Shown here: positions 46,421 through 48,612 of the stretch, piece by piece | How the letters are laid out: each line of letters opens with the position of its first letter | Position numbering within the stretch: position 1 is the first letter of the stretch | Assembly (NCBI RefSeq): GCF_003790525.1 | Contig: NZ_CP033632.1 | DNA length: 64,000 bases | From: Escherichia coli | Lineage (GTDB): Bacteria; Pseudomonadota; Gammaproteobacteria; Enterobacterales; Enterobacteriaceae | Direction: 5' to 3' (one strand) | Program-made: the position numbers and the translations under genes | The notes under the pieces: model-generated | The model's database searches: none | The model's input: the letters and a program-made list of their open reading frames with translations, nothing else | Told to the model about the DNA's origin: nothing

Positions 46421-46750
46421 TCAGGCTGACAACTGTCGGAGGATATCCGCTGTATTATAATGAGCCCGTTTTTCTATATATTTCCCGTCTTTCAGAGTGA
46501 TCATAAACATCAGAGAAAAGCGCACTTTCCTGCCGCTGGCAGGATGCCCAAGGAATTCACGGGTCTGCACGCCTTCAAAGATAAGATAGCAGGCGACTTT
46601 ATCGTCTCTGGCAAAGATTTCGTGGATACGCATTGTAAATCCCGGAAAAGCATCCATATGGCCTTTTTCCTGTACGATAAACTGCTCACTGTTCAGCGGT
46701 GTATCCACCTGATAATAGAATTTAAAATCCGGATGGCAGAGGTTTTTCAC
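46421..46750 (-). CDS. SnoaL/NTF2-like small protein, 109 aa
   Basis: Fold assignment by sequence impression only. Confidence 0.4.
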   Translation of the reverse strand: MKNLCHPDFKFYYQVDTPLNSEQFIVQEKGHMDAFPGFTMRIHEIFARDDKVACYLIFEGVQTREFLGHPASGRKVRFSLMFMITLKDGKYIEKRAHYNTADILRQLSA

Positions 46751-46830
46751 CTCATCATATTTATTTTCTTCAATCAGACGATAAAACTTTTTAACCGTTT
46801 TGATATTTTCTTAAACAGACATATTGCACC

Positions 46831-47820
46831 TCATTTTTCAGTTTCTTTACCTGCCGGAATATTGCCTTCCGGCGTTCCGTTAAATGTTTTTCGCCATTCA
46901 CTGGGACTGACTCCCATCCGCTGCCGGAATATCTGCCGGAAAGTAATGGTGGACTGAAAGCCTGCCAGTTCGGCAACCCGCTCCACTGCAATATCTGTAC
47001 TTTCCAGCAGTTCCTGACTCCGCCGGAGACGCTCTGTGGTGATCCACTCCCAGACCGTCATTCCTGTGGCCGAATGAAAATGGCGTGTAAGCGTTCTTCG
47101 GCTCATGGAGGCTAAATGGGCCAGAGTGTCAATATCATGTGGTAATCCCAGATTTGCGGACAGGTATTCCAGCAGCTGGTTTATGCGGTTATCGGACGTA
47201 CTTTTGGGAATAAGCAGTTGCCGGTACTGTGCCTGTCCGCCTTCCCGGTAAGGAGGAGCAACCATCCGGCGGGCTATTTGATTAGCCGTATATCTGCCCA
47301 GGCGTTGCCGGATCACATGGAGACAACAGTCCAGTGCTGCGGCTGTACCGGCTGAGGTGATAATCCGCTCGTCCTCAACATAAAGCACGTTCACGTCCAG
47401 ATGAACCGCCGGGAAAAGCATCTGGAAATCCCGTTCAGCCTCCCAGTGCGTGGCCGCCCGTTTACCATCCAGCAGACCGGTGTAAGCCAGAACAAAACTC
47501 CCCAGGCACAGGCCCACCACCTGAGCTCCATTTTTCCAGGCTGCAACCAGGGCACTGAGCAGAGTTTCAGAAGGCCTTTCATGGATGTGTTTCCAGAAAG
47601 GAATAATAACGATATCGGCCTCTGCCAGTGCATCAAGCCCGTATTCTGCCCTCATCGCCGTACCTTCAGCAGACCAGATAAGCCCGGGCTCTTCCGCACA
47701 TACCCGGCGGCTGAAGAGGGCCTTCCCTTCCAGTATCTCCCCGAACAGGATTAATGGAACGGAGACATGAAATGTACTGAACCCTTCGGTGATCACTATA
47801 GCGACAGTGATGGTGGACAT
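46831..47820 (-). CDS. AraC-family regulator with N-terminal DJ-1/PfpI-like domain (GlxA-type), 329 aa
   Basis: C-terminal AraC HTH region; N-terminal amidotransferase-like domain. Confidence 0.7.
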   Translation of the reverse strand: MSTITVAIVITEGFSTFHVSVPLILFGEILEGKALFSRRVCAEEPGLIWSAEGTAMRAEYGLDALAEADIVIIPFWKHIHERPSETLLSALVAAWKNGAQVVGLCLGSFVLAYTGLLDGKRAATHWEAERDFQMLFPAVHLDVNVLYVEDERIITSAGTAAALDCCLHVIRQRLGRYTANQIARRMVAPPYREGGQAQYRQLLIPKSTSDNRINQLLEYLSANLGLPHDIDTLAHLASMSRRTLTRHFHSATGMTVWEWITTERLRRSQELLESTDIAVERVAELAGFQSTITFRQIFRQRMGVSPSEWRKTFNGTPEGNIPAGKETEK

Positions 47821-47835
47821 GCCATGGCCTCCGGG

Positions 47836-48612
47836 TTAAATCGTAACTGATTCACCATCAGCAGGAGCGACAACTGACGCCTGGATCTGGTTATCGCGGG
47901 CATATTCCAGCAGTTCCTGACGGGTCAGCAGACAGTGGTTTACGGCCTCCATGTGCGTTGCCACAATCAGTGCCTCTGGTACGATACGATGGGCTTTCAG
48001 GACATCTTCCCTGCCGAAAATAATGGGGCCGAATCCGAGAACATGCGCCCAGCCCGTATTCATAATAACGACGCCAGGATTGAACCGACGTAAATTATCC
48101 TCTACAGCCTTGATCCAGATGGTATCCCCAACCAGATAGAGCGTTTTTTCGGACGGATGCTGGAAGACCACCCCACAGGCATCCCCAAGAATTGCTGCGA
48201 GTTGCGGGTTAGCATAGGCTTCGTCCGAACCATGCTGACAAACGGTTTTAATAAGTGAAATTTCGCCAAATGTGCTTTTGTCAGACAGAATAACAAGGTT
48301 GCTGAAGCCCTGGGAACGCAGGATCTTTTCATCATGTTCATTCTGAACATAAATCAGTTTATCTTTCGGGATGTGCGCAACAGCCGCTTCATCCCAGTGG
48401 TCAGGGTGTGTGTGGGTGACAATAATGGCATCCACATCCAGCAGTACATCAAGGTCAAAAGGCAGCTCAGTCATCGGGATGCGGATATCTGACCGGGCCG
48501 TTCCTTCGAATCCCGGATAGGCTTCTTTTTTCGCAAGCATCGGATCGACAAGAAATTTTTTACCAGCGTAAGAAATGAGTTGTGTGGCGTTACGTACCTG
48601 GATGATCTTCAT
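47836..48612 (-). CDS. Metallo-beta-lactamase-fold hydrolase, 258 aa
   Basis: HxHxDH motif (THTHPDHWD). Confidence 0.7.
   Translation of the reverse strand: MKIIQVRNATQLISYAGKKFLVDPMLAKKEAYPGFEGTARSDIRIPMTELPFDLDVLLDVDAIIVTHTHPDHWDEAAVAHIPKDKLIYVQNEHDEKILRSQGFSNLVILSDKSTFGEISLIKTVCQHGSDEAYANPQLAAILGDACGVVFQHPSEKTLYLVGDTIWIKAVEDNLRRFNPGVVIMNTGWAHVLGFGPIIFGREDVLKAHRIVPEALIVATHMEAVNHCLLTRQELLEYARDNQIQASVVAPADGESVTI

Follow-up and report, generated by a model that had tools for sequence, protein, structure and literature searches.

A decayed Tn3-family transposon with a putative SaxA-type isothiocyanate hydrolase module in a P1-like phage-plasmid of Escherichia coli

We analyzed a stretch of 64,000 nucleotides from Escherichia coli (assembly GCF_003790525.1, contig NZ_CP033632.1), hereafter called the window, which belongs to a P1-like phage-plasmid. 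Between the P1 gene c8 and a truncated ref, the window holds a foreign block of 3,374 bp (45519-48892) with three cargo genes on the minus strand. We read this block, with a probability of about 0.65, as a dead Tn3-family transposon that carries a sax-type module for isothiocyanate (ITC) tolerance under the control of its own regulator, and that is spread only by the phage-plasmid. The saxA/saxC-type module is of a known kind, found in plant pathogens and on plasmids of insect-gut bacteria, and it is not a new type of system; its carriage by a P1-like phage-plasmid is previously undescribed. The features of the block and its borders are the following, each with the evidence for it.

45015..45326, plus strand: P1 c8, intact, the last backbone gene ahead of the block (BLAST against P1 NC_005856, P1 annotation)
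45523..45627, minus strand: internal fragment of a Tn3-family tnpA, 105 bp (translation and nucleotide identity to an intact tnpA)
45675..46314, plus strand: pseudogene of the resolvase tnpR, a serine recombinase (tblastn with the 213-aa recombinase of the IncF plasmid NZ_CP117004)
46421..46822, minus strand: SnoaL-like ("ester cyclase") gene, 133 aa in its ancestral form, interrupted by TAA at codon 4 (translations compared with the IncF copy)
46831..47820, minus strand: GlxA-type AraC-family regulator, SaxC-like, 329 aa (Pfam DJ-1_PfpI and HTH_18/HTH_AraC)
47836..48612, minus strand: metallo-beta-lactamase (MBL)-fold hydrolase of the SaxA family, 258 aa, intact, predicted isothiocyanate hydrolase (Pfam, PDB sequence search)
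48613..48854, minus strand: non-coding leader of 242 bp, presumed promoter/operator of the operon (conservation and promoter scan)
48855..48892, minus strand: 38-bp terminal inverted repeat (IR) of the Tn21-like Tn3 family, GGGCTCCGTTTGGGAAACGGAAGATATTGTACGTTAAG inward (IR comparison)
48893..49217, plus strand: 3' part of P1 ref, Ref residues 80-186 (alignment with P1 Ref)

Results

The SaxA-Family Hydrolase

A first-pass annotation, made from the sequence alone, had recognized three open reading frames on the minus strand, 47836-48612 (258 aa), 46831-47820 (329 aa) and 46421-46750 (109 aa), and had called them an MBL-fold hydrolase, a GlxA-type AraC regulator and a SnoaL-like protein. All three frames are present, and the matches in Pfam, RefSeq and PDB agree with these fold calls.

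The hydrolase matched the Pfam family Lactamase_B_2 (E 4.7e-9) and bears the motif HTHPDH. Searched against all PDB sequences, it gave two matches only, namely the metal-dependent isothiocyanate hydrolase SaxA (6BRM; E 2.3e-92, 137/257 positions identical, or 53%, over the full length) and the uncharacterised structural-genomics protein 3RPC. The metal-ligand positions H66, H68, D70, H71, H126, D162, H219 and H225 were invariant in an alignment of 14 sequences that included 6BRM. A class B beta-lactamase or a lactonase was considered and rejected, as no such NCBIfam model was matched (best score 44 bits for a cut-off of 144); the match to the class B Pfam family Lactamase_B covered 16 residues only (E 0.004).

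SaxA converts isothiocyanates to an amine and carbonyl sulfide (PMC7036374). The SaxA proteins of Enterobacterales form five clusters, and enzymes from all five are reported to be active on ITCs (PMC7036374); for the CL2 and CL5 members, which are 44.9% identical, virulence on plants that produce isothiocyanates depends on each of the two (PMC7036374; also PMC12903958, PMC7303113). As the identity of the window protein to 6BRM exceeds that within this validated pair, the hydrolase lies within the divergence range of validated members. It very likely belongs to the SaxA family, and activity as an isothiocyanate hydrolase is probable. The first-pass annotation had proposed a detoxification function of unknown substrate; the first half of this proposal stands, and because the hydrolase is a SaxA-family protein the substrate can be predicted, with reasonable confidence, to be isothiocyanates.

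The hydrolase is identical throughout a protein cluster of 276 members. Between the P1-like copy and the copy on the IncF plasmid NZ_CP117004, the ratio of nonsynonymous to synonymous substitution rates (dN/dS) was 0.09 for the hydrolase and 0.10 for the regulator, so both genes were under purifying selection. Homologues of the hydrolase with 60-79% identity are chromosomal in Photorhabdus, Erwinia, Yersinia, Pectobacterium, Klebsiella, Citrobacter and Enterobacter. A near-identical chromosomal donor was sought and not found; the nearest named relatives were those of Photorhabdus (77-79% at the amino acid level) and of Erwinia, Yersinia and Pectobacterium (74-76%).

The GlxA-Type Regulator and Gene Pairing

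The second gene, which carries the RefSeq name "GlxA family transcriptional regulator", lies 15 bp downstream of the hydrolase gene and is followed after 8 bp by the SnoaL-like gene, ancestrally of 133 aa; gaps as short as these make the arrangement operon-like. Among 80 SaxA-like loci, taken from a scan with one genome for each species, a regulator homologue adjoins the SaxA-like gene in 64. In Enterobacterales it stands immediately downstream of the hydrolase gene and in the same orientation; nearly all of the gaps measure 18-170 bp, and the identity of the regulator follows that of the hydrolase. The arrangement differs in Pseudomonas, Halomonas and relatives, where the regulator gene is divergent and upstream of the hydrolase gene, which is followed by a gene of the isochorismatase family.

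The best NCBIfam match of the regulator was FtrA (NF006902), which was rejected with 311.8 bits for a cut-off of 425. Cys105, in the GLCLG "nucleophile elbow" of the DJ-1/PfpI-like domain, is invariant in the 64/64 SaxA-adjacent regulators, and T124-H125-W126 are at least 95% conserved in these 64 homologues. It seems possible that the domain has a reactive-cysteine role in sensing or catalysis. In the PDB search, residues 41-195 of the regulator matched the isonitrile hydratase InhA.

The leader upstream of the hydrolase gene is about 80-85% conserved with respect to the IncF copy. It contains two weak, consensus-level matches to sigma-70 promoters on the minus strand (48753-48724 and 48703-48675). 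The scan for promoters and terminators returned 10 weak matches where 5.1 ± 2.7 were expected, a result that is at the level of consensus and not decisive. We lean toward control of the hydrolase gene by the adjacent regulator, a view that we hold somewhat less firmly than the catalytic assignment.

The SnoaL-Like Gene

For the third gene the assignment to a SnoaL-like fold was right and the extent of 109 aa was not. Translations of the window, of p12579_1 and of the IncF copy showed that codon 4, directly after MSV, is TAA (46811-46813) in the gene of the window and GAA in the IncF copy. The frame 46421-46750, with its GTG start, is thus the longest remnant of a 133-aa gene extending to 46822, and the window copy is not an intact SnoaL-fold reading frame. 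Matches to NCBIfam TIGR02096 and to SnoaL and ketosteroid-isomerase-like families were below cut-off. The 133-aa IncF version matched the SnoL/AclR cyclases in PDB with E of about 1e-7, and the match at the level of the fold is real.

The chromosome of Photorhabdus thracensis has the same three genes in the same order, with amino acid identities of 77/74/78%. It is the only chromosomal cluster with this three-gene order, and its SnoaL-like gene (locus L009, 11802-12193) is frameshifted near codon 90, so that two lineages have lost the gene independently. A SnoaL-like gene directly follows the hydrolase gene in Burkholderia, Variovorax and Brevundimonas. Such clusters thus have the SnoaL-like gene as an accessory that recurs but can be dispensed with, and in the window it is inactivated.

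Borders of the Block in the P1 Backbone

Compared by BLAST with P1 (NC_005856), window 43498-45518 aligned with P1 bases 1-2026 (cra, cre, c8, Oref/P2ref) at 97% identity, and window 48893-49752 aligned with P1 ~2313-3173 (the 3' part of ref and the start of mat) at 98% identity. P1 homology on the c8 side stops at 45518. The block replaces about 286 bp of P1 (~2027-2312), that is, the P1ref promoter and ref codons 1 to about 79. Neither P1, P7, RCS47, JL22, SJ46 nor any further entry in the phage collection contains a counterpart of it.

The first-pass annotation had described an insertion between cre and the Ref-like gene; the block has replaced P1 bases and is not a clean insertion. The gene order of P1 that it had given, cre, cra, ref, mat, res, mod, needs correction as well: the P1 annotation gives cra-cre-c8-ref-mat, so the block sits between c8 and the 5'-truncated ref, and cre is not its direct neighbour.

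A Tn3-Family Transposon Relic

The block is almost certainly a decayed, non-autonomous remnant of a Tn3-family transposon with a Tn21-like IR, lying inside ref. At its left edge, the tnpA fragment is 93% identical to bases 9001-9105 of locus L089, which lie within an intact 995-aa tnpA (1147 bits on NF033527) of the Klebsiella quasipneumoniae plasmid NZ_CP129862, and its translation aligns to Tn3-family TnpA elsewhere in the window. A 162-bp query of this edge matched 2,985 plasmid records, where the position falls in genes annotated "Tn3 family transposase". Of a Tn3-family DDE transposase gene, this 105-bp internal fragment is all that the block contains.

The tnpR gene has the position and the orientation, divergent from tnpA, that are usual in the Tn3 family, but it is inactivated by two frameshifts (near 45821 and 45970) and by an in-frame stop near 46165. 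Aligned by tblastn with the 213-aa recombinase of NZ_CP117004, it appears as three segments in three frames, with 88-98% identity. At the nucleotide level, window 45627-46294 shares 86% identity with the res/tnpR region of the intact L089 transposon, and intact 213-aa relatives of tnpR with 85-93% identity occur on more than 1,000 plasmids. The Tn3-family relic that had been noted on the cre side is thus present, as a tnpA fragment and a tnpR pseudogene.

The delivery by a transposon that was proposed on this basis gains a second support, which the first-pass annotation had missed, in the 38-bp IR on the ref side. The outer end of this IR coincides exactly with the P1 junction. The IR is identical at 36/38 positions to both IRs of the intact L089 transposon, at 30/38 to the perfect IR pair of the IncHI2 plasmid p0085-NDM (L003) and at 25/38 to the IR of Tn21; together with the subterminal 52 bp it is 96% identical to the 5,234-bp transposon of NZ_CP129862. 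The homology to the copy on the IncF plasmid NZ_CP117004 (L004) also stops at this IR, which is followed by unrelated DNA and is there split by IS5075. As IS5075 targets the terminal repeats of Tn21-like transposons (PMC8269217), this copy independently confirms the transposon terminus. No second copy of the IR with at least 24/38 identities was found at the left edge of the block; the sole other match in the window was an unrelated Tn21 IR at 55970-56007. With its right IR only, the block is a relic and not a complete element.

The layout tnpA (minus), tnpR (plus), cargo and right IR is the same as in intact relatives. We propose that a transposon inserted in ref with its right end at P1 2312/2313, and that at least two deletions followed. 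In one of them, the left IR would have gone together with the 3' part of tnpA and P1 2027-2312; the other would have taken the 5' two-thirds of tnpA up to res, joining the equivalents of L089 positions 9105 and 11102. Since the left IR, the transposase and the resolvase are all lost, the block is unable to move by itself, and it would now spread only together with the phage-plasmid.

Related Transposons and Copies Elsewhere

The intact transposon of the K. quasipneumoniae plasmid p2020S07-155-87k (NZ_CP129862, L089) measures 5,234 bp and consists of IR, tnpA (minus), tnpR (plus), a TauE/LysR cargo and IR. A second relative, on the IncHI2 plasmid p0085-NDM (L003 2723-10000), is an element of 7,278 bp with perfect 38-bp IRs and a 5-bp target duplication, TATTT. 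It encodes a tnpA fragment, a recombinase, a GlxA/AraC regulator, an MBL hydrolase, a major facilitator superfamily (MFS) transporter and a second MBL protein, and its AraC-MBL pair is 67% identical at the nucleotide level to that of the window. The AraC-MBL pair was also seen at matching coordinates on every listed IncHI2-sized plasmid of Salmonella and E. coli. The p0085-NDM type of element, 7.3 kb in length, is possibly a larger transposon for tolerance to isothiocyanates or electrophiles, and it seems to be undescribed.

The IncF copy (L004) has an intact recombinase gene followed by the SnoaL-like (133 aa), AraC and MBL genes and by the same IR, and is also truncated on the left. Between window 46421-48612 and L004 6022-8213, nucleotide identity falls from 99.5% in the SnoaL-like gene to 89.7% in the regulator gene and 81.1% in the hydrolase gene. 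This graded divergence between the P1-like and IncF copies points to recombination between different sax alleles within the cluster. An undeleted transposon with the trio was sought and not found, the search having yielded only L089 and L003, with other or partly shared cargo, and the left-truncated IncF copy. Related transposons elsewhere thus carry cargo of this kind, as the AraC-MBL pair on IncHI2 plasmids and as the trio with the same IR on IncF.

Distribution

A 4-kb stretch with both P1 junctions was found, 99-100% identical, in at least 56 plasmids of PLSDB and in 65 of 5,426 complete E. coli genomes. The P1-like cre-c8 region is present in 688-695 of these 5,426 genomes, and its allele with at least 99% identity in exactly 65. 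With 65 block genomes and 65 genomes of near-identical cre-c8, the block marks one near-clonal sublineage, which represents about 9% of the P1-like elements of E. coli. It is an old, fixed marker of this sublineage and not a recent acquisition in the present molecule. Many of the plasmid sources listed are poultry and human isolates, from which sampling bias prevents a conclusion. PHROGs families exist for all three proteins and are labelled "unknown function".

Truncated ref and Neighbouring Insertions

The "Ref-like" reading frame at 48828-49217 is a fusion of 129 aa, which starts with TTG at 48828 and joins 21 codons from the transposon end to Ref residues 80-186. DNA binding and efficient cleavage by Ref depend on its N-terminal 76 residues (PMC4330346). 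Ref is the P1 factor that makes lysogens more sensitive to ciprofloxacin (PMC4713147). The truncated Ref is probably inactive, because its entire 76-residue DNA-binding N-terminus is gone. The sublineage with the truncated ref may have lost this ciprofloxacin liability, which may matter under quinolone use.

The C1-repressed P2ref promoter and its operator are retained at 45454-45482 (equivalent to P1 1957-1985), upstream of the block and pointing into it. Upon derepression, transcription from P2ref would be predicted to cross the tnpR pseudogene and to run antisense to the sax operon.

A second, unrelated insertion interrupts mat at P1 position 3173. Its features are listed here.

49753-49790: terminal IR of the second insertion (sequence)
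49786-51606: Tn3-family tnpA, 5'-truncated, 606 aa, model positions 384-954 (family model)
52071-52955: EamA/PecM-like transporter gene (second insertion region)
52987-54261: tet(A), 892 bits, above cut-off (family model)

We take the IR at 49753-49790 to be identical to that of Tn1721, and the IR at 55970-56007 to be identical to that of Tn21. With tet(A) in this second insertion, the phage-plasmid also carries a resistance region.

Discussion

Proposed Function and Points against It

Isothiocyanates from crucifers and rapeseed meal are antibacterial, and they are also diet-derived compounds credited with health effects. According to the mechanism that we propose, the hydrolase would split R-N=C=S by means of a metal-activated water, yielding carbonyl sulfide and the amine R-NH2, which is harmless. 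The GlxA-type AraC regulator, a companion of saxA-like genes across Proteobacteria, would be the most likely protein to control the operon, acting from the leader 48613-48854. We infer from this scheme a benefit to the host E. coli, to which the module would give tolerance to dietary or plant isothiocyanates.

Several observations weigh against this proposal. The block tracks a near-clonal cre-c8 lineage, so that hitch-hiking could explain its frequency. It has also been hit by insertion sequences (IS), of the IS110 family, IS21-like (ISEc62), IS1A and IS3, in the plasmids NZ_CP128611, NZ_CP068592, NZ_CP100527 and NZ_AP027681, which belong to the same sublineage, and this suggests relaxed selection in at least some hosts. 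Taken with the stop in the SnoaL-like gene, these hits argue that selection on the block in E. coli is not strong. Without a surviving left IR or a target duplication, the original transposition is reconstructed and not observed. Neither public annotation nor PHROGs assigns a function to these genes. The authors of the SaxA study point out that members of the family are common among Enterobacterales not associated with plants and may have other roles (PMC7036374), and SaxC-type regulators lack mechanistic characterisation in the literature (PMC10098062, PMC12903958).

Alternative Explanations

The alternative that survives best is that the block is a functionless hitch-hiker, kept by its linkage to a successful P1-like lineage or by the inactivation of ref and not by the function of its cargo. 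The matching counts of 65 genomes for the block and for the cre-c8 allele fit such a history, as do the decay of tnpA, tnpR and the SnoaL-like gene and the IS insertions inside the block on several plasmids. The loss of Ref residues 1-79, which include the segment required for DNA binding, is also in its favour: given the ciprofloxacin sensitivity that Ref brings about in lysogens, exposure of the hosts to quinolones could favour a phage-plasmid that is null for ref. However, the reading frames of the hydrolase and the regulator are intact and identical in hundreds of sequences, while their neighbours have decayed, and both genes show strong purifying selection over the deeper divergence from the IncF copy. 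We consider this explanation unlikely. It addresses why the block is kept, and it is compatible with an active ITC module.

It is more doubtful still that the true substrate of the MBL-fold enzyme is something else, for instance a beta-lactam, a lactone or quorum signal, or some other ester or electrophile, and that its likeness to SaxA reflects a shared scaffold. MBL-fold enzymes are catalytically diverse, the automated names of homologues include "UlaG-like" and "metal-dependent hydrolase", few members of the family have been assayed, and the family occurs in many bacteria without a plant link. However, the sequence relatives in PDB are limited to SaxA and the uncharacterised 3RPC, the beta-lactamase and lactonase models failed to match, and the window protein falls within the identity range of a family in which enzymes of all five clusters are reported to hydrolyse ITCs.

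That the three genes are conserved P1-family backbone at this position, as their constant place and junctions in dozens of P1-like plasmids and their own PHROG families might suggest, is refuted by their absence from P1, P7, RCS47, JL22, SJ46 and every other phage record, by their restriction to about 9% of the E. coli genomes with a P1-like cre-c8 (65 of 688-695), by the transposon sequences on the borders, and by homologous copies on IncF and IncHI2 plasmids and on chromosomes; the first-pass annotation was right to set them apart from the backbone.

Implications

Leaving these alternatives and returning to the transposon-borne ITC module, a bolder extension can be put forward, which we regard as speculative and rather unlikely. 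P1-like phage-plasmids would be transducible carriers of ITC resistance in gut E. coli, with the regulator as a covalent sensor of electrophiles. Isothiocyanates are thiol-reactive electrophiles, which makes covalent sensing by Cys105 attractive, as a hypothesis only. In this proposal, the ITC would thiocarbamoylate the invariant Cys105 and thereby switch on saxA. If true, covalent sensing at Cys105 would provide a mechanism for the sensing of ITCs by sax systems, which the literature calls unknown for the classic sax clusters, and diet (crucifers, rapeseed meal) would be linked to selection for a phage.

SaxA-type enzymes have so far been discussed mainly for plant pathogens and insect-gut bacteria. 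The present module occurs in about 1% of complete E. coli genomes, and poultry and humans are the source of many of these. Should the module be active, gut E. coli would be able to break down isothiocyanates, and tolerance to a dietary antimicrobial could be passed on by phage infection. Our literature search found no report that ties SaxA, isothiocyanates or these genes to P1-like elements or phage-plasmids. As databases including PHROGs give "unknown function", the assignment to SaxA is a useful and directly testable annotation.

Comparison with Known Systems

With respect to the reference P1, the flanks of the block in the c8-ref-mat region are 97-98% identical, and c8 and the C1-controlled Oref/P2ref promoter (P1 1957-1985) are kept. 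In contrast, the window has the block where P1 has the P1ref promoter and Ref codons 1-79, and mat is cut further downstream by the Tn1721-type end at 49753.

The 5,234-bp element of Klebsiella and the IncHI2 element of p0085-NDM have the same type of IR, the same tnpA (minus)/tnpR (plus) layout and their cargo at the same place between tnpR and the right IR. The cargo of the Klebsiella element is of TauE/LysR type instead. The IncHI2 element, which shares the AraC-MBL pair, differs in its MFS transporter and second MBL gene and in having no SnoaL-like gene. In the window copy the left IR is gone, tnpA is reduced by about 96% and tnpR is no longer functional, so that the block is immobile.

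The regulator shares with the GlxA/FtrA/GbdR subfamily of AraC proteins an N-terminal DJ-1/PfpI (GATase-1-like) domain and a C-terminal double helix-turn-helix, and differs from FtrA-type regulators in that its constant partner is a SaxA-like hydrolase. In sax systems saxB is reportedly isochorismatase-like and saxC, in P. syringae, is reportedly of AraC type, a picture that fits the layout in Pseudomonas. The sax set comprises saxA (hydrolase), saxB (uncharacterised) and saxC (transcriptional regulator) (PMC12903958). In keeping with the saxC regulator of this set, the window has a GlxA/AraC regulator gene 15 bp downstream of the hydrolase gene; its accessory gene is SnoaL-like, whereas Pseudomonas-type clusters have an isochorismatase-family gene.

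The hydrolase has the same length and the same metal ligands as SaxA of Pectobacterium (PDB 6BRM), to whose family the sax genes of Pseudomonas syringae/viridiflava are also linked. The hosts of those systems are plant pathogens, whereas the present module is found in E. coli from animal and human sources and on a phage-plasmid. A parallel is provided by the plasmid-borne saxA of gut bacteria of the cabbage root fly, which is reported to be carried on mobilisable or conjugative elements (Welte et al. 2016, cited in PMC7036374). There, too, a gene of the SaxA family resides on a mobile element in gut-associated Enterobacterales; the vehicle in the window, in contrast, is the relic of a Tn3-family transposon that has become fixed in a temperate phage with plasmid replication.

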